IMG/VR virus record: IMGVR_UViG_3300008108_000029
From: an uncultured virus (IMG/VR IMGVR_UViG_3300008108_000029)
Taxonomy: Duplodnaviria; Heunggongvirae; Uroviricota; Caudoviricetes
Length of the DNA: 20,000 nt
Reading direction: 5' to 3' (one strand)
The notes under the pieces are model-generated. The model ran no database searches, was not told where the DNA came from, and worked only from the letters and a program-made list of their open reading frames with translations. Within the stretch, counting starts at the first letter, position 1. Each line of letters begins with the position of its first letter. Below are positions 3,577 to 20,000 of this stretch, one piece after another. Position numbers and translations under genes: made by a program.

Positions 3577-4209
3577 TTAGCAATCAACTGAAGAATTAGG
3601 AATGTGGCAAACTTTGTATTCGCTATTTTCAATCTTTCTGTGATTTGTATTAGCCATAAGTTTATGTATAAAGTCCCAATCGTGTCCATATCCATTACAA
3701 CCTGACCAACTTATTTGAGGAATATTTTTATGTGCTATTGCTGAAGTTCCTATACTACCCCTTTCTAATTTAGTTTCCCTAACAACCGAACTTAAAATTC
3801 TATTTTCGGTAGGGTGAAATCTATAAATGATTGTGTCATTAAAATAAATCCAATCGTAATTTTGTATTGAACTTGCTATAATTTGAAGATGATTGTTTCC
3901 GAAAAAATCATCAGTATCAAGATAGCATATTATATCTCCTGTCGCTTTTTTGCAACCATAATCTCTTACTAACCCTGAAAAATATTCTTGCTTTGTTAAA
4001 CCGAATAATTTTATTTCATTAGATAAATGTTTTGTTGTTTCTGCAATAGTGATAGGGCATCCATCACTTACAATTATCAATTCTTTGTTTGGATACGTTT
4101 GTGATTTGAAAGAATTTACAGCCCTATTGAATTTATCAACTCTATTCTTTGCAGCATACATATAATCACCAAGAAAAGAAGCCATTATTACTGATACTTT
4201 AACAGACAT
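3577..4209 (-). CDS. Glycosyltransferase family 2
   Basis: KVSVIMAS, SFKSQTYPNKELIIVSDG, ATGDIICYLDTDD, GHDWDF. Confidence 0.9.
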   Translation of the reverse strand: MSVKVSVIMASFLGDYMYAAKNRVDKFNRAVNSFKSQTYPNKELIIVSDGCPITIAETTKHLSNEIKLFGLTKQEYFSGLVRDYGCKKATGDIICYLDTDDFFGNNHLQIIASSIQNYDWIYFNDTIIYRFHPTENRILSSVVRETKLERGSIGTSAIAHKNIPQISWSGCNGYGHDWDFIHKLMANTNHRKIENSEYKVCHIPNSSVDC

Positions 4210-4819
4210 ACATTTTGTATTTAAAATTAATAAAATCGTCTTTGTATATTTTGTTTACCAAACGGTATGATTTTAAATCATAGTAATCTTGAAAGCATAT
4301 TTTTCTATTGCTTCTATTTGTGAATGGAATATTTGAAAATTCCAAATTCAAATTCAATAGAATTGTAGATAAACTTGATGTATGATTATCATTTGATAAA
4401 GTTTCAAATTTGAATATGTGATTTGTTTTTATAGCGTTATTAACACTTAAAAAATCAGTTTGCGTTCTGTAAAACGTAGAATAATTTGTTTCTTCTTTTT
4501 TAAATCCAACGTAATAAAGCCAATTAATAAACTCATAGAAAGATAAATTTTTTATAGCATAATAATCTATAATATTAGGGTCAGACATTATATTCTCATA
4601 TATAGATACAACTAAATCATAAGGATTTCTTACATAAGAAAAAATGTTGTAATTTTTTATATAAGGATAAAAATTTATAGCAGTATCTAACGTGCAAATG
4701 TTTCCATAAATTAATCTTAAATCATCTACTTGTTTACTTATAACTTCTTTTACTGTTGTTCCTCCTGTTCGGTGTATATGTATAAAACAAAAATTTTTAC
4801 TATCGCTTATTACTGACAT
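4199..4819 (-). CDS. Sulfotransferase (Sulfotransfer_2 / carbohydrate sulfotransferase-like)
   Basis: FIHIHRTGGTTV (5'-PSB loop, usually FIHIPKTGGTS), VRNPYDLVVSIY (3'-PB motif), FKFETL, and C-terminal YKDDFINFKY. Confidence 0.85.
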   Translation of the reverse strand: MSVISDSKNFCFIHIHRTGGTTVKEVISKQVDDLRLIYGNICTLDTAINFYPYIKNYNIFSYVRNPYDLVVSIYENIMSDPNIIDYYAIKNLSFYEFINWLYYVGFKKEETNYSTFYRTQTDFLSVNNAIKTNHIFKFETLSNDNHTSSLSTILLNLNLEFSNIPFTNRSNRKICFQDYYDLKSYRLVNKIYKDDFINFKYKMYVC

Positions 4820-4837
4820 TGTTGATTATTATTTACA

Positions 4838-5311
4838 TTATAAATCTTTTTGTTGTTTTGTAACAACAATATTTTTAAAAATTTTATTCTTTATTAATAC
4901 AGATACTTCATTTGCTATATCTAATGCTTCTCTACCCGTTGTGTCTATTGGTAAGAAATATTTATCAGGTTTTTCATATCCTTCAACAAAATATTTTTCT
5001 CTACCTCTTATCTCACTTGTAAAAATATAGCACTCAAAAACTTCTGTCCTTTCTTTGAGTTCCTCTCTCAAATCTTTATATGGAGATATTAAAGATATAA
5101 TTGGCACAAACTCTTTTTTTTCAAGAAATAATGCAATATTGTAAGCAGTTTTTATATTATTTCTTCTTCCTGTTTCAGAGTAATCTTTGTTATTAAGAAT
5201 GTCCCTTAATTCATCTCCATCAATGTTAATTGAATTAGGAATTAATTTCAATAATTCTTTGGAAATAGTTGTTTTTCCTGCTCCTGCTTGTCCTGTTAAA
5301 TTTATAATCAT
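4838..5311 (-). CDS. cysC: Adenylyl-sulfate (APS) kinase, compact form
   Basis: P-loop LTGQAGAGKTT, IDGDELR, YSETGRRNN, SLISPY, YEKP. At 157 aa it lacks the DPKGLY lid segment of typical cellular CysC. Confidence 0.88.
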   Translation of the reverse strand: MIINLTGQAGAGKTTISKELLKLIPNSINIDGDELRDILNNKDYSETGRRNNIKTAYNIALFLEKKEFVPIISLISPYKDLREELKERTEVFECYIFTSEIRGREKYFVEGYEKPDKYFLPIDTTGREALDIANEVSVLIKNKIFKNIVVTKQQKDL

Positions 5312-5314
5312 AAT

Positions 5315-5518
5315 TTATTTTTGTTTATTAATTTTTATTTTATCCCAAATGTATTCGTATAAATAGTAAGTGAAAATTTTTATTATAAAGTCAGATATAC
5401 CTATGAATAAACCTAATGATGCCTGTCCTGTAATAAAAAAAGAAATTAAAAAAGTTATAAAAGAGGAATATATCCTGTATGTAAATGATTTAATAAAGTA
5501 AATTATATGTGTTTTCAT
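5315..5518 (-). CDS. Small membrane protein, DUF2061-like
   Basis: KSFTYRI...FFITG...KIFTYYLYEYIW pattern with two hydrophobic segments; lies directly upstream of cysC. Confidence 0.7.
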   Translation of the reverse strand: MKTHIIYFIKSFTYRIYSSFITFLISFFITGQASLGLFIGISDFIIKIFTYYLYEYIWDKIKINKQK

Positions 5519-5521
5519 TAA

Positions 5522-6265
5522 TTAAGCAGATATTCCACCCATATTAATTTCTTTTCTTAATAACAACTGCGTCCAATCAGAGTTATTATGTTCACACAAT
5601 ATACTTGTGTCAATATACTTTTGTATTCCTAACGCATCTGTATCAATAGCAAAGAATCCGTCAGGGTGCATAACTAAACCTTTTTCGTGTCTAAATTCAA
5701 ATTCATTAAGAATGTTTTTGTGCATTAAAACACATCCTAAACCACAATGAAATACTTTCATTAATTTACCATCAATATTTATTAAATCTGAACCTTCTTT
5801 CAAACTAATAGTTTCTCTTAAATCACCGAATGTTTCCATTCTTTGAGCCATCAAATGACTTTCGTATCCGAAATTAATCATATACATACCTGAAACAACT
5901 TCTAAATTATGTATCATAAGTCGTTCAATAACATCGGGAGGAGGAACTAAATCGCTTTCAAGATGAAATAAATAATCATAATTGTTAGCAATAGCATACT
6001 TTCTAATAGCATCGTGGCTCTCTGCTAATATCTTTTGTATTGAGTGATTTTTTGGCTTGATGTGTATTGCCTTAAATCCTTCTTTAATGAATCGTTTGTA
6101 ATTCTTTCTTGTTTCACTATTATCAACGATTAATACATCGTAGTAAGGATATGTAAATGTTTTTACTCTCGCTATGTATTCTTCAATACAATAGTTTTTC
6201 TTGTCAGAATGAGGAGTTCCTATCAAAACCCTTTTCTTTCTTCTAATAATGGATGGTGTTAGCAT
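5522..6265 (-). CDS. GT-A fold (GT2-like) glycosyltransferase
   Basis: VLIGTP, VLIVDNS, YDYLFHLESD (DxD variant), VVSGMY, CGLGCVLMHK, HPDGFF, IDTSILCEH. Confidence 0.8.
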   Translation of the reverse strand: MLTPSIIRRKKRVLIGTPHSDKKNYCIEEYIARVKTFTYPYYDVLIVDNSETRKNYKRFIKEGFKAIHIKPKNHSIQKILAESHDAIRKYAIANNYDYLFHLESDLVPPPDVIERLMIHNLEVVSGMYMINFGYESHLMAQRMETFGDLRETISLKEGSDLINIDGKLMKVFHCGLGCVLMHKNILNEFEFRHEKGLVMHPDGFFAIDTDALGIQKYIDTSILCEHNNSDWTQLLLRKEINMGGISA

Positions 6266-6915: not shown

Positions 6916-7791
6916 ATGAAAAATGCAATGAACATTGACCGTTATATCGCTATGGCGGAAGAAAATTTTTCGGGGGCTAATGGCTACCAAGACCCGAATT
7001 TAGCGAATCTTGACCTTTCTTTTGAAGGTGAATTTGGTGCTGATGGAGATTATTATGATGCTGATGGAGATTATTATGATGCTGATGGCGACTATATGGA
7101 CGCTGACGGTTATTATGATGCTGCTGATGGAGATTACTCTTATGCTGCTGCTGCTCCTCGTGGCAGACGTATTATGGCTGCTCCTGCTCCTCGTAAAGTT
7201 GCTGCAAAACAACCAACTCCTTACCAAGTAAACGTATCAAACACGACAGCAGGTACTTTAACTGTTGTATTGTTTGGTCTTAACACTTATTTGTTAGACC
7301 CTAACTTTGGTTCTTCAACAGGTGTTACGGTTACTCCTGCACAGGTGAGTGTAACTTATTTAGAGTTATTAAACCAATCTGCATCTCAACCGTTTGAAAC
7401 TTCGTTAATTCGTATTCAAACTTCAACTGCTTCTCAATTAACACAAATTTTGACAGTTGTAAGTAAAGATGCTAATGGTCAATTATGTCAAATTCCTGTG
7501 ATTACGCAGTCATATTTCTCTGCTAATCAATTCCAAAGCACAATTTTGGATGTTCCATATCCTGTAAAAATTGACGGTAACACTTATGTTACTTTCCCAA
7601 TTTTAGGTAACACTACTGCAACATACACATTCTTCCCTGCGGAGAAAATCAATACTTCTCGTGTATTGGGTGGTGGTTCAGAATTACAACAATATTCTGC
7701 ACCTGCTGTTCCTGTTGCTGTTCCTATGTTTAGTGCAAGACCTGTTGGAATGAAACCTCGTCCAAAAATGATTCGTGCAGGACGTAGATAA
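6916..7791 (+). CDS. Candidate major capsid/virion protein: acidic repeat leader, basic linker and a ~150-aa beta-rich (possibly single jelly-roll) domain
   Basis: First long gene of the structural block, with codons typical of high expression (gct, cgt, ggt), its own terminator and no TM segment. The Thr/Val/Ser-rich core PYQVNVSNTT...TYTFFP has alternating beta-strand patterns. The fold is inferred, not shown. Confidence 0.55.
   Translation: MKNAMNIDRYIAMAEENFSGANGYQDPNLANLDLSFEGEFGADGDYYDADGDYYDADGDYMDADGYYDAADGDYSYAAAAPRGRRIMAAPAPRKVAAKQPTPYQVNVSNTTAGTLTVVLFGLNTYLLDPNFGSSTGVTVTPAQVSVTYLELLNQSASQPFETSLIRIQTSTASQLTQILTVVSKDANGQLCQIPVITQSYFSANQFQSTILDVPYPVKIDGNTYVTFPILGNTTATYTFFPAEKINTSRVLGGGSELQQYSAPAVPVAVPMFSARPVGMKPRPKMIRAGRR
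7039..7140 (+). repeat. 21-nt tandem repeat encoding (ADGDYYD) x ~5
   Basis: gctgatggagattattatgat is exact at 7039 and 7060 and degenerate at 7081, 7102 and 7123. Confidence 0.9.
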
Positions 7792-7813
7792 TCGTTAAAC
7801 AATAACGCAAAAG

Positions 7814-7853
7814 AAAAGGGCAGGTAATTTTATTGCCTTGCCCTTTTTTTTTT
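7814..7853 (+). terminator. Rho-independent terminator
   Basis: Stem aaaagggcaggtaat / attgcc-t-tgccctttt followed by a run of 10 T, just after the 7791 stop. Confidence 0.9.
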
Positions 7854-7887
7854 AATTAAAATATTTATAACGATTTATCTTAAACGT

Positions 7888-8430
7888 ATGAAAAACAATA
7901 CTATAAAATATATTTTTGAAAACAGACAACCTGAATTAAGAAGGTTGATTGTAAAATACGGATTGACACCTGCAAGAAGTAAAGCAGATTTGTGGAAAAA
8001 GGTTAATTACCTTATTACCAAATTCAAGCAGGAAATGTTGTTTGATATTGCTAAAATGCACCCTGATAGAGATTTGATATTATGGGCAGCGCAACAACAA
8101 CAAAAACTATCACAACCTCAACCTGTATTGCCTCAAATGCCATCAGTTTCAAGTTTTAATCAAGAAGAAAATTCAAACGCTTGTGGCTGCTCATCTGCTA
8201 ACGGAGATGACTATTCAAATATGAATTGTGGAATGAGTGCTTTTTCAGGAGATGATTTTTCAAATTGTAGTGGTAATCCTGATTGCACTTGTGATTGTAA
8301 AAAATCAAATGCAGAAGGAGAAAACCAAAAAATTGAAGTTAAAGCCACATTGGCTAACAATATGCCATTAATAGTGGTAGGTTCATTGCTTTTAGTCGGT
8401 GGACTTATTTTTTTAGGTAGTAAAGCGTAA
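7888..8430 (+). CDS. Membrane-anchored putative virion protein with a Cys-rich acidic linker and C-terminal TM
   Basis: Helical N-domain ending HPDRDLIL; SNACGCSSANGDDYSN...FSNCSG...CTCDC...SNAEG; TM MPLIVVGSLLLVGGLIFLG. Confidence 0.7.
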   Translation: MKNNTIKYIFENRQPELRRLIVKYGLTPARSKADLWKKVNYLITKFKQEMLFDIAKMHPDRDLILWAAQQQQKLSQPQPVLPQMPSVSSFNQEENSNACGCSSANGDDYSNMNCGMSAFSGDDFSNCSGNPDCTCDCKKSNAEGENQKIEVKATLANNMPLIVVGSLLLVGGLIFLGSKA

Positions 8431-8439
8431 AGCGAAAAT

Positions 8440-9258
8440 ATGATTTGGATTCAGCACGATTTCTATGAAAACTTTGTAAAAAGTATTCAAACAAAAGATA
8501 TTGATTTATCTCTTGATATTTTTCGTAGTGAATTATCAGATTTATTAACCTATAAAAGTAAAAATGTTTTTGGTTTATTTGATAAATTAAAAATAAGTTA
8601 TAGCAAGAAGGCATCTTACCAAGAACTTGTTGATATAATTATTAATCAAATTAAAACAAATCAAAAATTTGTCAGGGGATTATCTTTTTTAATTGGTGAA
8701 TCTAATGAAGTTGCCAAGAAAAACAAAAAAGAAGATTGGCAAAAACTATTGAATAACATAACAAATGGTATTAATATAGTTGCTAAATATTTTATTGATA
8801 ACCCTAAAAGAGAAAATCTTTTTAAAAGACAAATAAAAGATATGATTGGCTTGAAATCTTCTGTAACGGGAAATGATAGCCGAGAATTAGAAAAGAAAGA
8901 TAATACAGTTCTTTGGATTATTGGAATCGCTGCTGTATGTGTAGCAGGTTATTTAGTGTATAGATACTTTGATAAAAAAAGGCAAGAAAGAATGAGATTG
9001 GAAAGTTTAAATCCAAATTCATTTCCTTCATCATCACCTATGCCTGATACAAAATTAGAAGTTCCTGATTTAACTAATCAAGTAACACAACCTAAACCTA
9101 TTGACCCGTCATTTTCTGTTCCTGATGACGTATTATTGCCTGAATCACCTATTCCTACGGCTAATACGGGAGGCGTTCAAATTAATGTATCTACGACACC
9201 TACACCAACACCTACACTTACACCTACACCAATAGCACAAACACCACAATCAATATGA
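8440..9258 (+). CDS. Membrane protein with a helical N-domain, single TM and Pro/Thr-rich tail
   Basis: TM VLWIIGIAAVCVAGYLVY followed by RYFDKKR; TPTPTP repeats at the C-terminus. Confidence 0.7.
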   Translation: MIWIQHDFYENFVKSIQTKDIDLSLDIFRSELSDLLTYKSKNVFGLFDKLKISYSKKASYQELVDIIINQIKTNQKFVRGLSFLIGESNEVAKKNKKEDWQKLLNNITNGINIVAKYFIDNPKRENLFKRQIKDMIGLKSSVTGNDSRELEKKDNTVLWIIGIAAVCVAGYLVYRYFDKKRQERMRLESLNPNSFPSSSPMPDTKLEVPDLTNQVTQPKPIDPSFSVPDDVLLPESPIPTANTGGVQINVSTTPTPTPTLTPTPIAQTPQSI

Positions 9259-9569
9259 TTGAAGAAGGGAAAATAAAATCTAAATTAAAGATTAAAAAAC
9301 CTAAAAAAATTGGTGTTAAAAAAAGTATTTTGAAAAAAAGTATCCCTAAAAGAAGAAAAAAAAAGGAATACTCTGATTTTATCGGAGGAAATAGTGAGGT
9401 TGGAAAATATACAAAAGGTGCATTTTTAGGAGGATTGGTTGGGGGAGTTGGAGGATTATTAATAGGAAAAAAAATAATATTAGGAATTATAATCGGAGCA
9501 TTAGCAGGAGGTTATATATCTTACCAAATAAATAAAGAGAGTAACAAAAAATCAAATATCAAAAATTAA
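9255..9569 (+). CDS. Small basic membrane protein with glycine-zipper TM hairpin
   Basis: Lys-rich N-terminus, YSDFIG motif, then GAFLGGLVGGVGGLLIG...GIIIGALAGG. ATGA overlap with the upstream gene. Confidence 0.7.
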   Translation: MIEEGKIKSKLKIKKPKKIGVKKSILKKSIPKRRKKKEYSDFIGGNSEVGKYTKGAFLGGLVGGVGGLLIGKKIILGIIIGALAGGYISYQINKESNKKSNIKN

Positions 9570-9582
9570 AAACCCAATTATT

Positions 9583-11487
9583 ATGGAAAATAAAAATTTA
9601 GTATCAAAAGAAGAATACGAAAAAATAAAAAAACAAAAAGCAAAAGAAGATGCTGAAAGAGAGGTAATGTCCGCTAAATTAGGTGCAACTGATAATTTGT
9701 GGTCGCCACAAGAGGAGTTGCAAATATATACTTTTGATTCAGGTAAAAAACCAAGAAAAATGGTTTTAAAAAAGAAAGGAACTAAATATAACGATAATTG
9801 GGTTTCTAAAATGATGCCAATTCAGGGAAGTATGGTGTTCTATATTAATAGAGATGAAAATGGAAAACCTGTTGGTGAGCCAAAAAAATATCTACAAATA
9901 ATTACCTCTAAAGGTGTGTGGACTGATGACTATATTGACGGTGATAAACTTGAACCTTACTTCATTGATATTATTAGAAAAAAAGGTAAAGGGTATGGTG
10001 CAAGTGAACTTTTAGCAGCAAAAAAGAGATATGGAATTAAAGAAGGTGTTGAAGTTAAAGTAGAGGACTTATTAGTATCTAAATTTACAGGACTTGATGA
10101 TATTACAAAAGCAATGAATCAATATGGTGCAAATGGATATACTGATGTTAATTTACAAAATCTTGATTTAAGTGCTGATGGAGATTCAGGTATGCTTGAT
10201 TTATCAAACGCAGATGGTTTAGATGAAAGTATAGCAAACGCATTTGGAGCAGCACCAAAAAGAATAGCAAGAACGACAAGTGTTAGCGCAAAACCTAAAA
10301 GATTAGTTAGGGCATTAGCAAATCAACCTGCTATTAAATTAATTAAGTCAGGTCAATCTTGGAAAAAAGGAAATAATTTCCAAAAAGGTGCTTTACTTAC
10401 GGTAATAGGAACTACAACAATCTATAACAAAAATAATCAACCTCAAAAAGCAATTTTGTTTTCAAACAATCAAGCGTCCTTACTTGATAACAAATGGAAC
10501 AAATTATTAACTTGGAATAAGGTGGCTAAACAAACAGGTAATGCTGTTTCTATGTATGGTAAAGGTCAAGTTCCAAGATTCATAAAAGATTCAGGAACAA
10601 ATAAATGGGTTAGAAGTGGTTTTTATAATATTGACACATTTCAACCTAAAAGAGTTGTTGATACTCAAGTAAAAAGAACAAAAGATAGTAAGTTGATTAT
10701 GTTTTTAGTTTTTGCAGATGGAACTGCATCTACTTCAAACTATTGGACAAAATCAAATGATTTTTTATCAAGTTTTGATGGCGATTATTCAAATATGACT
10801 AATCAAAGTTTACTTGATGGTCTTACTGAAAACACAAGTTTATTAAACGCTGATGGAGATGAATATTCAAACTTAACAAATCAAAGTTTACTTGATGGTC
10901 TTACTGAAAACACAAGTTTTTTAGAATTTGAGGCAGGAGATTCTGATTTTGATGGAGATTCTGATTTTGATGGCGACTTTATGTTTGAAGGAGATGATTC
11001 AAATGCAGAGGGAGATGAACCTAAAAAGAAAAAAGGTGGATTTGGTGCTTGGTTGAAAAAAACTTTTTCAAGAAAAAAGAAGAAGAAATCTGCTTTAGCA
11101 ACCATTGCTGACCCTGAAACTGATGTTGTTAGTGCAAAAACTATGGTTGAGGCACACAAAGAAAGTGGAAGTAGTAAGCCATTAGGTCAATGGATTAAGT
11201 CAGATGGTGGTAAAAACTTTTTGAGTGCTTTAGCAGCAGTTGCGACAGCAGTTGTGTTAGGCAAAACTGAAAAAGGTGAAGTATCTAAAGATAGTGGAAG
11301 TGCTGATAGTAGAAGTGAGAGTGGAAGTGGAAGTGGAAGTGGAAGTGGAAGCGACACAAAAGGAAAAGATGAAGGTGAAAAAGAATTTAAAATTTTAGGT
11401 ATGTCGCCTGTTACTTTTGGTATCGTTGCAGGAGCAGTTGTTATTACTTCAATTTTTGTAGTTCCTAAATTAATTAAGAAAAAATAA
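9583..11487 (+). CDS. Large multi-segment putative virion protein with two acidic motif blocks and a C-terminal KILGM-TM anchor
   Basis: 634 aa. Acidic blocks at ~10129-10248 and ~10770-11015 separate basic domains; a GS linker precedes KILGMSPVTFGIVAGAVVITSIFVVPKLIKKK. Confidence 0.75.
   Translation: MENKNLVSKEEYEKIKKQKAKEDAEREVMSAKLGATDNLWSPQEELQIYTFDSGKKPRKMVLKKKGTKYNDNWVSKMMPIQGSMVFYINRDENGKPVGEPKKYLQIITSKGVWTDDYIDGDKLEPYFIDIIRKKGKGYGASELLAAKKRYGIKEGVEVKVEDLLVSKFTGLDDITKAMNQYGANGYTDVNLQNLDLSADGDSGMLDLSNADGLDESIANAFGAAPKRIARTTSVSAKPKRLVRALANQPAIKLIKSGQSWKKGNNFQKGALLTVIGTTTIYNKNNQPQKAILFSNNQASLLDNKWNKLLTWNKVAKQTGNAVSMYGKGQVPRFIKDSGTNKWVRSGFYNIDTFQPKRVVDTQVKRTKDSKLIMFLVFADGTASTSNYWTKSNDFLSSFDGDYSNMTNQSLLDGLTENTSLLNADGDEYSNLTNQSLLDGLTENTSFLEFEAGDSDFDGDSDFDGDFMFEGDDSNAEGDEPKKKKGGFGAWLKKTFSRKKKKKSALATIADPETDVVSAKTMVEAHKESGSSKPLGQWIKSDGGKNFLSALAAVATAVVLGKTEKGEVSKDSGSADSRSESGSGSGSGSGSDTKGKDEGEKEFKILGMSPVTFGIVAGAVVITSIFVVPKLIKKK
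10801..10980 (+). repeat. Intragenic repeats: 41-nt exact direct repeat (10801-10841, 10879-10919) and 18-nt tandem repeat (GDSDFD) from 10936
   Basis: aatcaaagtttacttgatggtcttactgaaaacacaagttt occurs twice with a 78-nt period; ggagattctgattttgat occurs twice. Confidence 0.9.
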
Positions 11488-11488
11488 T

Positions 11489-12562
11489 ATGAAAATAGAG
11501 CAAGAACAAAGCATAAGACCAATGGTTAAAACTGCACCTACCACTTTGAAATTTCAAAGACCTGTAATTGCTACGTCTGATGCTGTAAGACCTATTGCAC
11601 CATCTGCTACACCTGTTGCAAAAGCACCTGTTGCACCTGCACCTGTTGCTCCTGCACCCGTTGCACCTGCGAAATCTGCACCTGCACCTGCGAAATCTGC
11701 ACCTGCACCTGCTGCGAAATCTACACCTGCTGACACAACAGCAACAACAGGCACTAAATATAAAATTTTAAAAACAAATAAATTTAGTGAGCCACCTTTT
11801 AAAGTTGGTGATATTGTAGAGGGAACATTAGATAGCAATGGATTTCTGATTGTAAAGAGAGATTTTGAAGGAAAAAATGTTCAGTTCCAATTTGGTAAAG
11901 ATGAATTTGAACAAGTTGGTTCAACAACAACAACAACAAGTGGTTCTGCATCAGGAGAAAAAGAAGTTACTAAATCAGATTTTTGGTCGCTTAAAAATCC
12001 TTTTCACTATACTGTTATTGCAGGTGCTATAATAGGTTTTTTCTATGCTAAAAACAAAGCAAAAAACATTTTAGCATCTACTTTAATTGGAGCAGGTATT
12101 GGTGGTGGATTAGGTATTGTTGCCAATAAGTTTATGGGTAAAAATACGACATCAACAAAAAGTAGTGGAGATAAAGCAGGTTCGGGTTCGTCAGATAAAG
12201 TAACTGATGATAAACTAATTGATGCAATGATTAATAGTATGAGGCAAATGGTTGTTTCATTAGCAGTTACATTTGGTCAAGATAAAGCAAAAGCAGAGGC
12301 AGATTTTAATACAGATTTTGAAAAACAAAAGCCACAAGTAATTGCGAAAGGAAAAGAAGTTTTAGCGACTATGAAGGACAATGAAAAACAAGCAGTTTAT
12401 GAAATGATTTTGTTTGAAACTGATTTGTATTCAAAAGCAAAAACTCAAGAAGATGCTGAAAAAATTGAATCTCAACTTAATTCTAAAATTCAAGAATTAA
12501 GCACAAAATATTCAGTTGATTTGAAAGCAGCGATTGATAAATTAAAAGGTCAAAAATTCTAA
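11489..12562 (+). CDS. Membrane protein with an Ala/Pro-rich linker, small beta domain, two-TM glycine-zipper hairpin and helical C-domain
   Basis: APVAPAP/KSAPAPA repeats; FKVGDIVEG; YTVIAGAIIGFFYA...TLIGAGIGGGLGIV. Confidence 0.75.
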   Translation: MKIEQEQSIRPMVKTAPTTLKFQRPVIATSDAVRPIAPSATPVAKAPVAPAPVAPAPVAPAKSAPAPAKSAPAPAAKSTPADTTATTGTKYKILKTNKFSEPPFKVGDIVEGTLDSNGFLIVKRDFEGKNVQFQFGKDEFEQVGSTTTTTSGSASGEKEVTKSDFWSLKNPFHYTVIAGAIIGFFYAKNKAKNILASTLIGAGIGGGLGIVANKFMGKNTTSTKSSGDKAGSGSSDKVTDDKLIDAMINSMRQMVVSLAVTFGQDKAKAEADFNTDFEKQKPQVIAKGKEVLATMKDNEKQAVYEMILFETDLYSKAKTQEDAEKIESQLNSKIQELSTKYSVDLKAAIDKLKGQKF

Positions 12563-12563
12563 T

Positions 12564-13067
12564 ATGAATAAAAATCTTTTTCCAATTTACGGGATAATAG
12601 CAGGTGTAGGTTTGTCTTATCTATATATAAAAACATTAGGTAAAGATAAAAACTTAAATCTTACTAATAACTTGCTTATTGGAGCAGGTATTGGAGCAGG
12701 TATTGGCTCTTTAATTACTTTAATGTCTAATAATTCCTCTACCGAAGAAAAAAAAGAACCTAAAATAATAACCGAACAGTCATTGAAAGATTTAGCGAAT
12801 GAAACTAATTCTGCTTTGGAACTTCAGAACTATTTAGATATTATTGAAAGAGCAAAAGTAGGAGATAAAGATAAGCAAAGAATATTCAATGTTATCAACG
12901 GGGTTTTGTTAGCAAAAAAAGATAAAAAATGGGATGAGTTTGCTAATATGAAAACGAAAAAAAATATACTTTTAGGTTATAATGTTTCAGAGTATGATTT
13001 TAATGTTTTTCAAGACGTTATGGTTAATAAATTAGCAGACATTATTAGTGATGTTATAAATAAATAA
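12564..13067 (+). CDS. Membrane protein with an N-terminal two-TM glycine-zipper hairpin
   Basis: IYGIIAGVGLSYLYI...LLIGAGIGAGIGSLI, similar to the hairpin in 11489-12562. Confidence 0.75.
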   Translation: MNKNLFPIYGIIAGVGLSYLYIKTLGKDKNLNLTNNLLIGAGIGAGIGSLITLMSNNSSTEEKKEPKIITEQSLKDLANETNSALELQNYLDIIERAKVGDKDKQRIFNVINGVLLAKKDKKWDEFANMKTKKNILLGYNVSEYDFNVFQDVMVNKLADIISDVINK

Positions 13068-13646
13068 ATGGCTACAAAAGAAAAAATAGTTCAAGTAACT
13101 CAAGGTTTACCAAGTTGGGCTAAAGGAGTTATTGCAGTTGTCGCTGTTGGTGGCGTTGTTTTTATTGGATATAAGGTTTATAAATTGTTACAAGACATAA
13201 CGCAAGGTAAAGACCAACGTGATGTTATCAAAAGCGTAAAGCAAGAAATAAAACAAGAATTGGATGCAGGAAAAAATCCAAGCCATCCAATGTCCGTGTA
13301 TCGTTCTGCTGTTAATCAAATTAAATCAAATTTGGATGACTGCGAAGCAAACATTAATGATGAAACTAATGTAATCAAGTTATTAACAAAGGTTGTTAAA
13401 AACAATCTTGATTGGAAGATACTTCAGCAAGAATGGGACGTTAAAGAGGTAGAGGATTGTGCGAGTTGGACATCAACAAAGTATGAATTAGCAGAGTTGT
13501 TGCAAGACCAATTAGACCAAAAATATGTTTTCACATTGGGTAAACTCGTAGGGGAAAATTTTATTTATGACCCAATAAGAAGTGGTGAAAAATCAACATT
13601 TGATATTTTAAAAACTTACTTTAATAAAATAGGAGTTAAATTCTAA
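13068..13646 (+). CDS. N-terminally anchored membrane protein
   Basis: GLPSWAK followed by TM GVIAVVAVGGVVFIGY and KVYK, then a helical domain. Confidence 0.75.
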   Translation: MATKEKIVQVTQGLPSWAKGVIAVVAVGGVVFIGYKVYKLLQDITQGKDQRDVIKSVKQEIKQELDAGKNPSHPMSVYRSAVNQIKSNLDDCEANINDETNVIKLLTKVVKNNLDWKILQQEWDVKEVEDCASWTSTKYELAELLQDQLDQKYVFTLGKLVGENFIYDPIRSGEKSTFDILKTYFNKIGVKF

Positions 13647-13651
13647 ATATA

Positions 13652-14161
13652 ATGAAAGATAAATTAGCAGGAATACCTGATTGGGCAAAAATAGTAGGAG
13701 GTATAGCAATTATTGGTGGTGCTATTTGGGGTGCTGTCGCTATTTCAAAATTGCTTAAAGCAAGAAGAATACAAAAAGCATACGAAGAATCTCAAAAAGA
13801 TGAAGAAACAAAAGACCCAAATGTTGTTAATCCTCAAGATATAGTAACTTCAAAAGGAAAAATTGTATATGCTAAACCTAAATCAGCAGGTGCAGCAGGA
13901 TATGTAAATGTTAGGTCAAGTGCAGCAGTAGATAACACAAACTCTTGGTATAATCCAAGTAATTTTATAGGAATGGTTGTAGAAGGAAAACCTGTCGGAA
14001 AAGTTCTTGAGGGAAATATATCGGGAGAAGGTTATGTGTGGTATAAAATTACCGTAAATCCGCAACACTTACAAGAAAATAAAGAATTAGGATTAAAAGT
14101 TAATAAATCAAATACAACAGGTTACGTTAGAGAAGATAACGTAATTTTAAAAAGTGTTTAA
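13652..14161 (+). CDS. N-terminally anchored protein with an SH3b-like domain
   Basis: GIPDWAK plus TM; YVNVRSSA...IG...KVL...WYKI...GYVRED matches the bacterial SH3 (SH3_3/SH3b) pattern. Confidence 0.65.
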   Translation: MKDKLAGIPDWAKIVGGIAIIGGAIWGAVAISKLLKARRIQKAYEESQKDEETKDPNVVNPQDIVTSKGKIVYAKPKSAGAAGYVNVRSSAAVDNTNSWYNPSNFIGMVVEGKPVGKVLEGNISGEGYVWYKITVNPQHLQENKELGLKVNKSNTTGYVREDNVILKSV

Positions 14162-14227
14162 CAAATCCAAATAAAACCAAAACAAAACCAAAACCAAAAG
14201 ACCAAAATATAAACTAAAACAAAAAAA

Positions 14228-14704
14228 ATGGCACAATTAGCAAATGCAAATCTACTTGACGACAGCGTAGCAAACAGTAGTTCATTGAAAACTGAAAGAT
14301 TAAACAAAACTGCTCAAAAAGCAATCAATCCTAAACCGAGAGATTACAATGAAGAAAGAGTAGTAGAAAAAAGGAAAGAAGAATATAATAATAAGAAAGT
14401 AGTAGAACAAGAGGTTGAAATAGATGATGATTTTGAAGATGATTACGAGCAACAATCACCATCATTAATTAATTCTAATTCAAAAATTTATTCAAATACA
14501 GATAAAGAAAGTGAAGAAAAAGATAATAAAATATTAGGTATGAAACCTGTTTTATTTTATGGTCTTTTAGCATTAGGAGTAGCAGTAGGAGGATATTTTA
14601 TATATAAAAAATTTATTAAAAATAAAAAAACAATAGATGTAGCACCAAATCCAACACCAAGCGTAGATGTTCCGACACCTACAACAAATATTGGTAATGG
14701 ATAG
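14228..14704 (+). CDS. Acidic low-complexity protein with a KILGM-TM anchor
   Basis: KILGMKPVLFYGLLALGVAVGGYFIYKK; N-terminal LANANLLDDSVANS motif. Confidence 0.75.
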   Translation: MAQLANANLLDDSVANSSSLKTERLNKTAQKAINPKPRDYNEERVVEKRKEEYNNKKVVEQEVEIDDDFEDDYEQQSPSLINSNSKIYSNTDKESEEKDNKILGMKPVLFYGLLALGVAVGGYFIYKKFIKNKKTIDVAPNPTPSVDVPTPTTNIGNG

Positions 14705-14740
14705 TGTCTGCAAAATAACAACAACAAAAACAACAACAAA

Positions 14741-15586
14741 ATGGAACACAATTTAGATTTATTAAATGCAGACGGTCTTGACGAAAGCATTTCAAACACC
14801 AATGGAGGATTTAGATTTGGAAATTTAAGAGCAAGATTAAATCGTATGAACAGACCTGTAAGGGTAATAGCAAGACGAGGTGATGGCGATTTTTCAGATG
14901 CAAATGGATATGAAGATGTAAACTTAAAAAATCTTGATTTGTCTGCAAACGGAATGAATTTACAAGACCTTGATTTAGGTGCTAATGGTGATTATTCATA
15001 TTGCTGTGGTGTTGATGGAGATGATTCAAATGCTAATGGTTTTAGATTTGGAAATTTAAGAGCAAGATTAAATCGCAGAAAAAGACCTATCATAGTAAGG
15101 AGAGGAGATGGTGAAATTAATTCAGATGCCGATGGAGAAGGTTATTCTTACATTACAGTAACACCTGAACAAGCGAAGATGGCAGCAGATGTTGGTGGTA
15201 AATTATTGGCTAATATAAAAAGAAAACCTAAAACAGAACTTGAATCTAATTTAAAAGCTGCTTGTGGTCGTAAACCTTTGTTTGGTAAGTCAAAGAAGAA
15301 AAAATATCAAGAATGTGCAACTAAATTTATGGCTAATGCTGAAAAATCAAAATCTGCTGCTGCTGAAGCAATAGCAAGAGGAAAAGAAGCAGAAGCAAGA
15401 ACAGCAGAAGCAAACGCAGCAGCGAAAGCAGCAGAAGCAAAAACTTCAGAAAATAGTAGATTAGCTGCACCTGCGTCTGATAAATTTCTTGGTATGCCGA
15501 AAGCAGTAGGTATTACTGTTGTAGCAGTTGGAGGATTAGCACTACTTGTTGGTGGATACTTCTTAATTAAAAAAATGAGAAAATAA
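14741..15586 (+). CDS. Putative virion protein with alternating acidic and Arg-rich repeats and a KFLGM-TM anchor
   Basis: Two GFRFGNLRARLNR units, each preceded by an SNxNG motif; CGRKPLFG...C segment; Ala-rich helix; C-terminal TM. Confidence 0.8.
   Translation: MEHNLDLLNADGLDESISNTNGGFRFGNLRARLNRMNRPVRVIARRGDGDFSDANGYEDVNLKNLDLSANGMNLQDLDLGANGDYSYCCGVDGDDSNANGFRFGNLRARLNRRKRPIIVRRGDGEINSDADGEGYSYITVTPEQAKMAADVGGKLLANIKRKPKTELESNLKAACGRKPLFGKSKKKKYQECATKFMANAEKSKSAAAEAIARGKEAEARTAEANAAAKAAEAKTSENSRLAAPASDKFLGMPKAVGITVVAVGGLALLVGGYFLIKKMRK
14810..15075 (+). repeat. 35-nt exact direct repeat encoding FRFGNLRARLNR (14810-14844, 15041-15075)
   Basis: tttagatttggaaatttaagagcaagattaaatcg occurs twice. 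Confidence 0.92.
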
Positions 15587-15610
15587 AATAAAACCCAAAC
15601 CCAAAAAAAA

Positions 15611-16669
15611 ATGGAAGAATTAGATTTAACAAATTCAAACCTATTAGGTGATGAATTTTCAAACGCAAGAGGTGGCTTCTTTAAAAGATTAGGAGCAGGA
15701 ATAAAAAAAGCAGGTTCAGACATCAGAAAAGGTGTAAAGAAAGCAGGTTCAGACATCAAGAAAGGTGTTAAAAAAGCAGGAGAAGGAATTAAAAAAGTTA
15801 CAAAAAAATTAGGAGATAAAATCGGTAAAATTGGTAAAGATTTTAGAAATAATTTCCGTAAAATTTTAAGAAAAGGTGTTCTTCGTAAATTGAAAGGAAA
15901 TGCTCACGGTTACTCCACAAAATTATATCCTGCTATCGCAACTGAACAAGAACTAAAGAGTGGAAAAAAATACAAAGCATCTGCAATAGCAAAAGCAAAA
16001 TCAAACTACTCTAAATTAGTTTCTAAATGGAAAGATTTGGGTGGAGATGAGGCGGAATTAAGAAGTGCTATTAAAGAAGGTGGTAATAAAAGATTTTTAA
16101 AACTTCCTTTCAAATCAGCAAGTGGTAACAATGCTTATGAATTTTATTCATACTTTGCACCTGATGTAAATATTTATTATAATTCTGATGGCGAAAGTTT
16201 TACATACTTTGAAGGAACTTATAGCAATTCAGATGGCGAAACTACGCAAGAAATGCCTGAACAAAAAGAACAAACTAAAGGTATTATGGCAGTTTTTGCT
16301 TGGATTAAAGGTTTATTTTCAAAAGATAAAGGTGGAGATGAAAACCCATACGAAGCAGGAACTCCTGAATCAAAAGAGTTTGACCAAGACAAAAAAGAAG
16401 ATGCAGGTAATGAGCCTAAAGAAAGTGAAGCAGATAATGAAGTTATCAAAGAATTAGAAAAGAATAAAGATTCTGATGACACAGGTGGGGCAACTGATAA
16501 ATCAGCAGGTCAAGACACAAAAGAAGAAGAAGGCGAAAAAACTGATACAGATAAAACAGGAGATAAATTTCTTGGTATGCCAAAAGCAGTAGGAATTACT
16601 GTTGTTGCAGTAGGAGGTTTAGCACTTCTTATAGGAGGATACTTCCTAATCAAAAAAATGAGAAAATAA
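15611..16669 (+). CDS. Putative virion membrane protein with an acidic leader, 11-mer amphipathic Lys/Gly repeats and a KFLGM-TM anchor
   Basis: FSNARGG, then FFKRLGAGI and KKAGSDIRKGV/KKAGSDIKKGV/KKAGEGIKKVT/KKLGDKIGKIG. The last 35 aa are nearly identical to those of the previous gene. Confidence 0.8.
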   Translation: MEELDLTNSNLLGDEFSNARGGFFKRLGAGIKKAGSDIRKGVKKAGSDIKKGVKKAGEGIKKVTKKLGDKIGKIGKDFRNNFRKILRKGVLRKLKGNAHGYSTKLYPAIATEQELKSGKKYKASAIAKAKSNYSKLVSKWKDLGGDEAELRSAIKEGGNKRFLKLPFKSASGNNAYEFYSYFAPDVNIYYNSDGESFTYFEGTYSNSDGETTQEMPEQKEQTKGIMAVFAWIKGLFSKDKGGDENPYEAGTPESKEFDQDKKEDAGNEPKESEADNEVIKELEKNKDSDDTGGATDKSAGQDTKEEEGEKTDTDKTGDKFLGMPKAVGITVVAVGGLALLIGGYFLIKKMRK

Positions 16670-16719: not shown

Positions 16720-16965
16720 ATGATAAACTTGTTTTATAATTTTTGTGAAAGATTTATAGCAGGAATTTATAGCATCAAACTTGAAAGTGGACTTTATTTT
16801 AATTTACCTAAAATAGCACCAATTTTCTTGTTTGCTTTAATATTTTATGCTATTGGTAATACCTTAAATATTAAAACATTAAATGAGATTTCGGTATTTT
16901 TGATGGTTGTGGTTTTTTTCGGTTTTTTTTATTATAAAATTTTCCCAAATAGATTAAATAAATGA
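16720..16965 (+). CDS. Small two-TM membrane protein
   Basis: Hydrophobic IAPIFLFALIFYAIG and ISVFLMVVVFFGFFYY segments; ATGA overlap with the next gene. Confidence 0.55.
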   Translation: MINLFYNFCERFIAGIYSIKLESGLYFNLPKIAPIFLFALIFYAIGNTLNIKTLNEISVFLMVVVFFGFFYYKIFPNRLNK

Positions 16966-18272
16966 AAGATTGGACAGTAGAATTGGCTGATGAAAATACA
17001 GGCGATTTAGTTAAAGTATATGTAACTGCTGATAGCAAAGAAGATGCTATTGATGGTGCTTGGTTTGAATTGTCAGAAGAAGGTGAAGATGTAAATAACT
17101 ATACTTTGATTGACGCTTATAGTAATTTACATTTATACGCTATCTCAAAAGATGGGAAAATTTATAGTGGTAATAATTACGAAGATATAATTTTAAACAA
17201 GCCAATTAATTTTTTCAGCAAAGACGACAGCATAAAAGGTTACATAGATAAAAAAGGTAAATTTTATGATGAAGATGGGAACTCTTTTGAAAGTGGTGGT
17301 TCAGTACATGAATACACAGATGATATTTGGTCTTTTGAAGCAAAAGTTTCTGATGTAAATTTTTATTACGAAGAATCTTGGGTAAAAAATATGTTACCTG
17401 AAAATTCTCAAATTGAATTTGTAAAAGGAGAAAATTTTAAAGTTAAGTATCGTAATGTAATAGACATTAATCCTGAAGGTATAGATGGAGGAACACCTTA
17501 TATTGAGGAAGTATCGGGAACTGTTGTAGTAGAATATTCTTTACGAGAAGATGAAGATTTAGAGATAATTGAATTAGATTTCAAAACTGATGCTGATTGG
17601 AATTTAAAAGTTTTGAGAAACAAAGGTTGTATTGCAACAACAATAGATTCATTAGAAATAAATTTCAAAAATAAAGAAGTTGAAGTTGATTTCGCAGGTG
17701 ATTCAAAAGGCGAATGGGATAGTTATGAAGAAGGTGGAGAGTTGTTTAATTACTTATCAACACCTATAACATATCAAGTTTTTAATGAAAACGAAATTGT
17801 TTTAAGAACACAAAGTTTCAATAAAGCCGTTGATTACAGAACTTTAAATGGGAAGCATTTAAAGATTGTTGCCATTGATAAAAATGGAAATTCAAAAGTT
17901 ATTGCATCAAAGGAATACGCAGATGGTGGGATTACAGGACTTGCAAGTAAAGGTTATTATGTAAAGTATGATAAGTTTCAAAAAATGTGGGTAGTATTTA
18001 AGTCAAACGGAACTCCTGTTAATGAATATATAAATAAGCACAATGCTATTGATGTTGCTGATAACTTAAATGAAAAAAACAAAATGGTTGGAAGTAATTA
18101 TGTAAATAAATACGCCAAAGGTGGTGGAGTTGAAATTCAATCTGAAATTACAAAAGAAGAACTTGAATCAAAACTTGGAAGAAAACTGAATGGTTGGAAT
18201 GACGATAGAGTTGAATATAATGGAGTTACATACGTTAAGTGTTTTCTAAAACCACATTATAAAATAGCGTAA
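16962..18272 (+). CDS. Modular hypothetical protein of five segments separated by [FY][AE]xGG motifs
   Basis: FESGG (aa 109), YEEGG (255), YADGG (319), YAKGG (384). Confidence 0.8.
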   Translation: MKDWTVELADENTGDLVKVYVTADSKEDAIDGAWFELSEEGEDVNNYTLIDAYSNLHLYAISKDGKIYSGNNYEDIILNKPINFFSKDDSIKGYIDKKGKFYDEDGNSFESGGSVHEYTDDIWSFEAKVSDVNFYYEESWVKNMLPENSQIEFVKGENFKVKYRNVIDINPEGIDGGTPYIEEVSGTVVVEYSLREDEDLEIIELDFKTDADWNLKVLRNKGCIATTIDSLEINFKNKEVEVDFAGDSKGEWDSYEEGGELFNYLSTPITYQVFNENEIVLRTQSFNKAVDYRTLNGKHLKIVAIDKNGNSKVIASKEYADGGITGLASKGYYVKYDKFQKMWVVFKSNGTPVNEYINKHNAIDVADNLNEKNKMVGSNYVNKYAKGGGVEIQSEITKEELESKLGRKLNGWNDDRVEYNGVTYVKCFLKPHYKIA

Positions 18273-19222
18273 TGAGAGTATTAACAAAAAAATATTTAGA
18301 TAATCTTCCTCAATCTTTGGTTGGGACTATTTTTGTTAATGGCAATAGAACTTGGCAAATAATTTCTTATGGAAATAATTTTAGAAGCAGTAGCGAGTAT
18401 AAAGTTTTCCACATAAAAGAAGTAGGTGGTCAAGATGAAGAATTATTTATGACACCTAACAACTTCGCTTATTCATTTTCTAATTCTTCAATAGCAGATA
18501 AAATTTCTAAATTCAAGTTTTACAAAAGTGAATACGCAGAGGGAGGATTAGTATTATCAAAGTTTTTTTCAAATACTTCAAGATTTGTAGATTATTCAGG
18601 TAAGTTTTTATATCCACCAAGAATTAAAAATAAAGTTCATCCTGATTCAATAGAAATGTTTGATGACGGGGAATATGTAGCACAGCCAAAACTAAACGGA
18701 AGTAATACATCTGTTTTTATATCAAAAAAAGAATTTGTCGCTAAAGAACGACATAATAAGTTTTTTGCAAACCCACCTAAATTTGATTTTCAATCTCTTT
18801 ATCGTGGAAACGGAAATATGTGTATTACAGGAGAATTTATGAACAAGAGTAAGAAAGACCATAACAACAAATCATTAGTTGGTTTTTGTATATGGGACAT
18901 ACTTGCTTATGACGGAAAATTACTGATAGGAAGCAACATAGAGGAGAGAATTGCTCTTTTAGAAAAACTCTATCCTGCTCAAGAAGAAATCAAATTTCAA
19001 GGATTAACATATATGTTGAAAACTGATGTTGAAAACATATACCGAGTTAATAATTTTTATGGTAAATTTGATAAGTTATATAAGACGTTATCAAAGATAG
19101 ATATGGTTGAAGGTTTAGTATTAAAACAAAAAAACGCTAAACTTCAAATGATGATAGGAGAAGAAAATAACAGTAGTTGGTCAGTAAAAGTTAGAAAACC
19201 AACTCTAAATTATAGTTTTTAA
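18272..19222 (+). CDS. ATP-dependent polynucleotide ligase-family nucleotidyltransferase domain with an N-terminal extension ending in YAEGG and no OB domain
   Basis: Motif I AQPKLNG, III ITGEF, IIIa FCIWDIL, IV EGLVLK, V SVKVRK. The stop follows 7 aa after motif V. Confidence 0.8.
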   Translation: MRVLTKKYLDNLPQSLVGTIFVNGNRTWQIISYGNNFRSSSEYKVFHIKEVGGQDEELFMTPNNFAYSFSNSSIADKISKFKFYKSEYAEGGLVLSKFFSNTSRFVDYSGKFLYPPRIKNKVHPDSIEMFDDGEYVAQPKLNGSNTSVFISKKEFVAKERHNKFFANPPKFDFQSLYRGNGNMCITGEFMNKSKKDHNNKSLVGFCIWDILAYDGKLLIGSNIEERIALLEKLYPAQEEIKFQGLTYMLKTDVENIYRVNNFYGKFDKLYKTLSKIDMVEGLVLKQKNAKLQMMIGEENNSSWSVKVRKPTLNYSF

Positions 19223-19236
19223 AAAAATAAAAAGCA

Positions 19237-20000
19237 ATGGCAATGGCAAAAAAAGAAACACCAAAGAAAGTTGATATTTTCGGTGCAGCGAAAAGAGTAG
19301 AAAAACCAACATCTAAAGCAACTGATAAAACTGTTGTTGAGGTAGATAAGATGGAGAAAAAACTTAATGAGTATAAGTTTTTAAATCAACAAATTAAAGC
19401 GTTAGAGGCAAAAGTAGAAGCAGTAAGAAATAATATCATTGAAGTTAGTAAAGAAAAATTTATTGAACTTTATAGGGATAATGGAAGAAATCCAAAAACA
19501 TTTATCTTGAAAGATGGTGATGGCTGCGTTATGGTAATTCCTTATGATGCCTATGCTAAAATTAAAACACAAGAAAGGGCTGATGAAATTATTGAAAAAT
19601 ATGGAGAGGAAGCCGTAAACATAAATGAAAAATACGTTTTTAATAATGACGTATTGGAGAGAAATATGGATGCTATCAGGAAATTAATTGGTGAAGCAAA
19701 AAACATTTCAACAGAAGATAAAGAGAACTTAATTCGTGTTGAAACTTCATACGAAATCAAAAAAGGTTTCATTGATAATCTATATAGAGATTATGAAGAT
19801 AATATGGAGGAAGTATTAGACGATGTTAAGCCGACTATTGCTTTAAAAGATTGTGGCGACAGATACGAAGAAGGTGGAGTTGCTGAAGATGCTGATTTGA
19901 TTGGTTATGTTTATGAAGATGCGAGTTACGAATCAGGCGGTGGGGTTGATAGATATGCTCCCGAATACCAAGAAATGTTACGAGGGGATAAAAGAGGAAC
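19237..20000 (+). CDS. Hypothetical protein, 3'-truncated by the window edge (absent from the ORF track)
   Basis: Hand translation MAMAKKETPKKVDIFGAAK... is open to the window end, with an N-terminal coiled coil, RYEEGG (aa 210) and SYESGG (aa 231). Confidence 0.8.
   Translation, partial: MAMAKKETPKKVDIFGAAKRVEKPTSKATDKTVVEVDKMEKKLNEYKFLNQQIKALEAKVEAVRNNIIEVSKEKFIELYRDNGRNPKTFILKDGDGCVMVIPYDAYAKIKTQERADEIIEKYGEEAVNINEKYVFNNDVLERNMDAIRKLIGEAKNISTEDKENLIRVETSYEIKKGFIDNLYRDYEDNMEEVLDDVKPTIALKDCGDRYEEGGVAEDADLIGYVYEDASYESGGGVDRYAPEYQEMLRGDKRG

Follow-up and report, generated by a model that had tools for sequence, protein, structure and literature searches.

A recurrent aromatic-diglycine connector at the module borders of mosaic proteins from an uncultured freshwater phage

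Seven copies of the short peptide motif [FY]-[AE]-x-G-G are found in three consecutive genes at the end of a 20,000-nucleotide DNA stretch of the uncultured virus IMGVR_UViG_3300008108_000029 (IMG/VR; Caudoviricetes), which was analysed at its full length and is referred to as the window in the following (G+C content about 29%). The motif is enriched in these genes, lies at the borders of modules which are shuffled among homologous proteins, is placed in a linker in one structural model and is conserved at the DNA level. It makes up the central part of an extended connector, [KR]-[YF]-x-x-G-G-(G)-[VIL], which stands between small unrelated modules with a median length of 74 amino acids (aa) and repeats up to about 14 times per protein. 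This connector is probably a flexible inter-module hinge doubling as a recombination joint. The three genes, together with at least one more past the window end, are best explained as a tandem cluster of mosaic polyvalent proteins of a freshwater-phage lineage.

Occurrence of the motif and modular structure of the three genes

A six-frame scan of the whole window with the regular expression [FY][AE].GG returned exactly seven strict matches, starting at positions 17286, 17724, 17916, 18111, 18533, 19864 and 19927. All of them are in frame within the open reading frames (ORFs) 16962-18272, 18272-19222 and 19237-end (together 1,006 aa), reproducing position and residues of every copy listed in the original prediction. 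The strict motif was absent from the other 26 ORFs of the window (at least 60 aa, taken as genes; 5,341 aa), and the confinement to three consecutive genes which had been claimed is therefore correct. The looser pattern [FYW]xxGG likewise occurred seven times in the three genes vs. not once in the other 26 ORFs, whereas the GG dipeptide itself is commoner outside (36 copies in the other 26 ORFs vs. 11 in the three genes). When the three proteins were shuffled within themselves in 20,000 rounds, as the original prediction had proposed, the mean was 0.067 and the maximum three matches, and none of the 20,000 rounds reached the observed seven. Since the motif had been chosen by a reader who had already seen the data, it was also tested on independent sequences, and the replication there carries more weight. 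The strict motif was found 148 times, i.e. 3.3 times per 1000 aa, in a homology-based set of 109 proteins (44,527 aa). In three related viral contigs, 23 of the 24 strict matches are located in nine clustered genes (5,141 aa), and the single remaining match falls in the other approximately 79,900 aa.

The 521 GG sites of the protein family allowed us to extend the motif. An aromatic residue (F/Y/W) is present at position -3 in 290 of them, K/R prevails at -4 and V/I/L at +2 after the GG, resulting in the full profile [KR]-[YF]-[EAKS]-x-G-G-[GSE]-[VIL]. Some relatives open with a leader of 8-12 aa ending in the motif (e.g. MGCNCGKYQEGG and MNQSDKIYYAKGG), which gives them a propeptide-like look. 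The classical polyvalent protein gp60 of phage F116 (1650 aa) exhibits only two loose matches, indicating that the connector is lineage-specific and not general to the polyvalent class.

Gene 1 (436 aa; 16962..18272, + strand; taken from the ORF list) was split with the help of clustering into five modules of 113, 146, 64, 65 and 48 aa, which are separated by four connectors on the same strand: FESGG (connector 1, 17286..17300), YEEGG (connector 2, 17724..17738), YADGG (connector 3, 17916..17930) and YAKGG(GV) (connector 4, 18111..18125). The last of these directly precedes the C-terminal module M0 (about 45 aa; 18126..18269, +), whose conserved residues are G-R-K-L-x-x-W-x-D-D ... Y-K-K ... 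Y-K. A search with the last 51 residues of gene 1 among 1.84 billion representatives yielded 105 proteins of 33-1592 aa matching M0 at E<=1e-3, nearly always at the extreme C-terminus. Of 86 family proteins with a GG at most 45 residues upstream of M0, 77 carry an aromatic residue at position -3 of that GG. The structural model of M0 comprises one helix and three strands with predicted local distance difference test (pLDDT) values of 94-97. The M0 members matched no Pfam family, with nothing beyond chance level at E<=1, M0 gave no usable match in the Atlas, and neither M0 nor the N-terminal module of gene 1 showed a fold match above Z 2.7 among 48,161 solved chains.

Gene 2 (316 aa; 18272..19222, +), assigned by Pfam RNA_ligase, PHROG 548 and a survey of homologues, consists of an 87-aa N-terminal module, connector 5 (YAEGG, 18533..18547, +) and a minimal ATP-dependent ligase (nucleotidyltransferase) module (18548..19219, +); it has no M0. 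The match to PF09414 (RNA_ligase) at residues 134-290 is borderline with 27.8 bits vs. a cut-off of 27, and PF01068 (DNA_ligase_A_M) remained just below its cut-off (25.1 vs. 26.2 bits). The ligase has 302 homologues at E<=1e-5, many of them labelled ATP-dependent DNA ligase by their source, and in most homologues it is a stand-alone protein of about 215 aa; in IMG/VR no relative of the gene 2 ligase protein was found. Among the 120 homologues listed, 91 are stand-alone and none of these 91 has the motif upstream, 25 are N-terminally extended and four lack the 'YPPR' anchor box. The aromatic motif lies within 30 aa before this box in 11 of the listed extended homologues and within 34 aa in 14; several further ones use non-aromatic GG joints. 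Connector 5 lies at the fusion point of the ligase module, and the location at a domain border suggested for this copy from the outset agrees with both the Pfam match downstream of it and the survey.

Only the 5' part of gene 3 (19237..20000, +) lies in the window. On the window's own JGI contig (locus L103), which extends 3 kilobases (kb) beyond the window end, the gene is complete (746 aa; P0004) and comprises the N-terminal module M4 (about 210 aa), about eight modules and M0, with about 11 connectors. Connector 6 (YEEGG, 19864..19878, +) marks the end of M4 in the alignment, followed by connector 7 (YESGG(GV), 19927..19941, +). A fourth gene past the window end bears two more KYASGGGV connectors, and in the closer relative L104 a 999-aa neighbour contains the motif 10 times in its strict and 14 times in its loose form. 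Elsewhere M4 stands alone as an ORF free of the motif, namely in a 635-kb record of an uncultured phage and in an 82-kb contig from a metagenome (L107). When P0004 was compared by tblastn with cultured-phage records, matches were confined to its M4 part and came from four records of uncultured huge phages, and the Atlas returned for M4 only unnamed viral clusters and a lead to DUF7307 at 0.92. The modules of genes 1 and 3 showed no family match in Pfam and PHROGs, leaving the ligase as the only nameable module of the three genes, and the DNA of the three genes gave no match in cultured-phage records.

The homologues are mosaics of these modules. P0002, a homologue of gene 1 with 73% identity overall, differs from it in that the stretch of 65 aa flanked by connectors 3 and 4 is swapped for two other pieces, and P0003 is the N-terminal module of gene 3 fused to a middle module of gene 1. 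Five proteins with repeat-type, multi-stretch or zero-stretch matches (P0011, P0039, P0040, P0097 and P0101) were left out before cutting; the other 104 were cut at [FYW]xxGG into 387 pieces (median length 74 aa). An all-against-all BLAST of these pieces revealed module families of constant length which recur in varied order. The view of the genes as polyprotein-like strings of separable modules is borne out by these mosaics, and that the motif marks the module borders by the module split and by the stand-alone relatives of the ligase and of M4. Shuffling at the motif, which the original prediction had asked for in homologues, was found in P0002, P0003, the ligase fusions and M4.

With respect to structure, the expectation that the motifs fall in inter-domain linkers was confirmed for a relative consisting of an ART-PolyVal domain and M0. 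Its AlphaFold2 model (17-row alignment) has a mean pLDDT of 75.5, and YADGG (residues 176-180) sits within an inter-domain coil at residues 174-182 with pLDDT below 50. In this one well-supported model the connector appears as an inter-module linker. The model of gene 1 is poor (mean pLDDT 52.5), being confident at residues 1-37, about 91-110 and in M0 (about 390-436), and here connectors 1 and 4 lie only at the edges of confident parts. At connector 1 the pLDDT drops from 81 (residues 101-110) to 38 (residues 111-120).

Connector DNA and natural variants

Within the window the codons vary among the seven copies, of which two are in the canonical 12-mer form; connector 7 reads GGC GGT GGG GTT. 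Connector 4 is encoded by GCC AAA GGT GGT GGA GTT, and the run GCC AAA GGT GGT GGA GTT G recurs at the FAKGGGV connector of gene 3. The original prediction had concluded that the motif is conserved as peptide and not as DNA. This holds for the codons inside the window, but outside of it a DNA form made up of rare codons is conserved. In the three related contigs the first glycine is encoded by GGC in 23 of 51 connectors, compared to 6.7% genome-wide (p 4e-14), and the third by GGG in 21 of 28 connectors, compared to 4.8% (p 1e-22). The combination GGY GGT GGG GTT was present in 23 of 32 GGGV connectors of four genomes, the remainder of the present one among them (0.9% expected, p about 1e-40), and the typical connector DNA is AAT/TCA GGY GGT GGG GTT. 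In the related phage G002 the 12-mer GGYGGTGGRGTT occurs 13 times, always on the coding strand and always in the 6-kb cluster, and nowhere else in 97 kb. For comparison, the conserved glycines of M0 use the common codons GGT or GGA in 13 of 13 cases.

BLASTN among the clusters detected many high-scoring segment pairs of 24-45 nucleotides (nt) with 83-100% identity, centred on connectors with otherwise unrelated flanks; 27% of 172 ends of such pairs are at most 15 nt away from a connector vs. 8% at random. An IMG/VR scan for the 15-mer returned 85 matches in 83 stretches. Those that are in frame, preceded by an aromatic codon and within AT-rich open frames are found in G001-G003, in one 170-kb contig and in one or two others. 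Orthologous proteins of these genomes are only about 40-50% identical, so that synonymous sites should be saturated. Their preservation at the connectors points to ongoing homogenisation by recombination there or to selection on the nucleic acid. Frameshifting at GGG-G was considered as well and rejected, as the distances to off-frame stops are the same at connectors and random sites (median 8 vs. 8 codons for +1, 3 vs. 3 for -1).

DNA nearly identical to positions 16962-19998 of the window is present in lake and freshwater metagenome runs of 13 studies from 2019 to 2025, indicating a wide freshwater distribution of this uncultured phage. Contigs of four runs were aligned to the window. In runs X13 and X14, a contig agrees with the window as far as 17280, 6 nt short of connector 1, and diverges beyond it, and another contig begins to match at 18554, 7 nt past connector 5. 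The contig of a relative in run X11 fits only at 17762-17918, from just past connector 2 to connector 3, and the homology of gene 1 with P0002 and P0003 likewise ends at connector 3. Altogether, 7 of the 14 distinct divergence places listed are within 25 nt of a connector, with such zones making up about 15% of the stretch. A skip joint from 17918 to 18111 in run X11, the shorter side of which comprises only 23 letters, is not taken for a proven deletion; it is read as a relative's connector aligned to the second of two similar connectors.

Relation to polyvalent proteins, protease context and neighbouring genes

Polyvalent proteins are encoded by phages and conjugative elements as chains of 2-15 disparate domains with extensive mosaicism, are predicted to be packaged and injected, and were proposed to be processed into units, according to the main text of Iyer et al. 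2017 (PMC5512222). The family described here shares several features with them. Several disparate activities are combined in its polypeptides: ART-PolyVal (PF18760) was detected in 22 of 64 relatives scanned with Pfam, GNAT in four, NUDIX in two and ParB_N together with DUF3140 in one, and a polyvalent gene of G003 rich in connectors (L018:1271-3442) has a RadC-like JAB domain (PF04002, E 1.6e-30) among its modules. The same RadC-like JAB family appears among the precomputed domains of the ligase fusion P0112. The relatives are phage-encoded, being located on IMG/VR viral contigs of 74-102 kb together with lysis genes, homing endonucleases and thymidylate synthase. ART-PolyVal, GNAT, NUDIX, ParB and RadC as well as the mosaicism are thereby common to our family and the proteins covered in that main text. 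Unlike there, one stereotyped connector punctuates the modules here, and most chains end in M0. Supplements apart, the paper contains neither the word 'linker' nor the word 'glycine', and a literature search on ART-PolyVal, polyvalent proteins, virions and cleavage turned up nothing on such a connector. The polyvalent class is already known; the connector, its rare-codon DNA form and M0 go without mention in the main text of Iyer and colleagues.

The ART-PolyVal modules of the family end in a near-invariant tail, QIKLADGTNTTFDSNNPDIR(Y/F), which abuts the connector (alignment; P0068 residues ~157-180). Phage F116 has a related tail, GTFDASTPDILFS, without the GG connector. The window itself also encodes a solo ART-PolyVal ADP-ribosyltransferase (2501-3022, +; PF18760, E 3e-12) that is free of the connector and has a syntenic copy in G002 at L004:10027-10740.

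A role of the motif as cleavage site or packaging tag was the central proposal of the original prediction, and none of our results supports it directly. Pfam scans detected no peptidase family in the window. In the three related contigs, which are 53-84% complete, six-frame searches found no C48 (PF02902), no S78 prohead protease and no M23, and MPTase-PolyVal (PF18818) was equally absent while the control genome matched. C39 (PF03412) was missing from all three as well, with controls matched in 7 of 14 genomes, and C5 (PF00770) gave no match in a search which is uninformative, as its control matched nowhere. In view of the incompleteness of the contigs and of the fact that most genes have no family match, the absence of a protease is weak evidence. 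A Pfam scan of the relatives (115 ORFs of at least 100 aa in G002, and 150 ORFs in G001 and G003 of at least 150 and 110 aa, respectively; ORFs at piece borders skipped) yielded only a C92-like amidase among the lysis genes of G002 and the RadC-JAB module of G003. JAB enzymes include peptidases cutting after GG, and the RadC-like JAB module is a possible, sporadic candidate for processing.

With Gly-Gly standing where the units of a longer precursor meet, the connector is like the substrates of GG-specific proteases such as adenain (C5), Ulp1 (C48), pS273R of the African swine fever virus (ASFV), poxvirus I7 and the C39 leader peptidases; the GG-specific cysteine proteases considered here are those of families C5, C48, C57 and C63. 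Different from these systems, the connector has an aromatic residue at P5 relative to the putative cut and belongs to phage and not to eukaryotic-virus genomes, and C48, C5 and C39 were not detected within the scope given above. Adenain sites follow the consensus (M/I/L)XGG-X with a hydrophobic P4, and the sites of PLpro are likewise hydrophobic there. At the fourth position before a cut after GG, the connector mostly has E, A, K or S (96, 80, 64 and 42 of 521 sites), and therefore deviates from the adenain-type consensus. Nor does it resemble a single N-terminal double-glycine leader, being internal and repeated. Self-cleavage at Asn-Gly was dropped as an explanation: N precedes GG in 28 of 51 connectors of the relatives but in none of the seven in the window.

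In G002 the cluster is part of a long co-directional block with soluble lytic transglycosylase (SLT) genes matching the PHROG 'internal virion protein with endolysin domain', which fits the idea of virion cargo. No capsid, portal, terminase or prohead protease gene was found in G002 (L004-L008, 97 kb), neither by Pfam (E<=1e-4, 115 ORFs) nor by PHROGs (E<=1e-3, 57 ORFs), and it seems that the structural genes of this lineage of freshwater phages have yet to be catalogued.

Further features were noticed in the neighbourhood. Three family-2 glycosyltransferases, a sulfotransferase and an adenosine phosphosulfate (APS)-kinase-like gene are encoded at 3022-6265 of the window, and the same set is present in G002; by annotation, this cluster suggests a phage-directed sulfation or glycosylation of something. 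A second family of short peptide motifs, acidic repeats such as NLDLSADGD, LDLLNADGLDESI and (A/S)(N/D)GD(D/E)(Y/F)SN, occupies positions 6916-16669 (+). These repeats sit in the ORFs starting at 6916, 7888, 9583, 14228, 14741 and 15611, many of which have a C-terminal membrane helix and for which no family match was obtained. The last approximately 35 residues of ORFs 14741-15586 and 15611-16669 are nearly identical (KFLGMPKAVGITVVAVGGLALL.GGYFLIKKMRK). The related phages G001-G003 are dense in GIY-YIG/NUMOD/HNH homing-endonuclease genes, one of which (L018:3473-4438 in G003) lies between two polyvalent genes. G003 also carries an IS605 OrfB/TnpB-like gene (OrfB_IS605 and a Cas12f1-like TNB domain; L016:16037-17212) inside the phage contig.

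Possible roles of the connector

According to the explanation which we favour, each protein would be a chain of small modules folding independently. In the protein the connector would act as a glycine hinge without fixed structure, flanked by an aromatic residue and, on the opposite side, by an aliphatic one. At the DNA level it would be a short, G-rich conserved stretch in an AT-rich genome, providing homology for the insertion, deletion and swapping of modules, and this swapping may take place at the connectors between paralogues as well as between phages. We infer that the modules recombine at the connector, that the proteins may be injected together with the DNA as virion cargo and that M0 could be a common anchor or targeting module.

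Several observations weigh against this explanation. No recombination event was directly observed, and packaging into virions is only a prediction. Five of the seven window connectors lack the canonical DNA form, and connectors 2 and 3 lie in the low-confidence part of the gene 1 model, where a linker state is unsupported. Among the divergence places listed in the metagenome contigs, 17026, 17636, 17651, 17670, 17685, 18197 and 19229 are away from connectors, two of the seven connector-adjacent places stem from cross-matches with the connector and M0 that belong to gene 3 itself, and the place at 19927 resembles what we take to be adapter sequence. Furthermore, the aromatic residue is kept via changing codons (TTT 18, TAT 17 and TAC 14 of 51), which indicates selection at the peptide level, too. 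The kept aromatic residue, K/R at -4 and V/I/L after the GG exceed the needs of a hinge or a joint, and some recognition of the peptide by a protease, a partner or the packaging machinery is likely. Cleavage or docking at the connector peptide is a plausible explanation for the conserved aromatic, basic and aliphatic residues.

If the connector were a protease site, an endopeptidase of the phage or the host would cut at or after GG and free the modules in the virion or after injection. The conservation of the peptide on both sides of the GG beyond what a hinge needs argues for this, as do the predicted exposed position in a linker, the propeptide-like leaders, the RadC-like JAB module within the polyvalent gene of one relative and the processing into units that the main text of PMC5512222 proposes for polyvalent proteins. 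The peptidase searches, weak as their evidence is, argue in the opposite direction with the C92-like amidase among the lysis genes as the only hit in G002, as does the A/E/K/S in place of the hydrophobic residue of adenain and PLpro sites, and cleavage alone would leave the rare-codon DNA form unexplained. We therefore hold a protease site to be rather unlikely. Still less probable is a short linear binding motif, by which the connectors would dock to a virion component or chaperone (perhaps M0, capsid or portal), so that the repeated copies would load the chain or set its order during packaging and ejection. Such a motif would suit the aromatic, basic and aliphatic positions kept in an otherwise disordered stretch, the many copies per protein and the co-directional SLT genes of G002, but no docking partner was found, gene 2 has the motif without M0, and in some proteins the motif stands close to the N-terminus, only a few residues away.

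The nucleic acid itself might be the signal, with the G-rich 12-mer serving as a Chi-like hotspot, homing-endonuclease target or translational pause and the peptide being a by-product. The rare codons are consistent with this, as are the restriction to the coding strand and to the cluster, the GIY-YIG/NUMOD3 gene between two polyvalent genes in G003 and GGTGGTGG, which presumably resembles Chi of E. coli and Haemophilus. However, F/Y is conserved through different codons, and the 12-mer is lacking from the same five window connectors. Given the length of the ribosome exit tunnel, pausing at the connector would be premature for aiding the folding of the upstream module, and frameshifting is ruled out by the distances to off-frame stops. 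Such a purely nucleic-acid role is accordingly the most doubtful of the explanations. A combined system, in which recombination-site DNA re-assorts anti-host effector modules, the peptide is a cut or dock site and M0 is a virion-loading signal, seems improbable, if somewhat less so than docking taken alone. If true, it would be a plug-and-play scaffold for effector delivery not yet described for phages.

The hinge that is at the same time a recombination joint has a counterpart in the gp38 adhesins of T-even phages. As described in the text of Trojet et al. 2011 (PMC3157838), glycine-rich motifs (GRMs) separate variable segments in these adhesins, and exchanges giving rise to chimeras occur within or near the motifs. 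Both systems have short conserved glycine-rich motifs between variable segments with exchange at or near the motifs. The GRMs, as that text presents them, are the structural core of one domain and each of them is essential. In contrast, the connector is located between autonomous domains of unrelated function, is apparently unstructured and can recur as many as about 14 times within one protein.

Polyvalent proteins are regarded as an injected payload with which phages disarm their hosts. A connector conserved both as peptide and as DNA would offer a concrete and testable mechanism for the exchange of modules in this payload, as well as a straightforward way of dividing unannotated mosaic proteins, of which there are hundreds, into functional units. 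M0 is a candidate for a loading or anchoring signal, and if the connector is also cleaved, this would represent a new protease specificity in phages.

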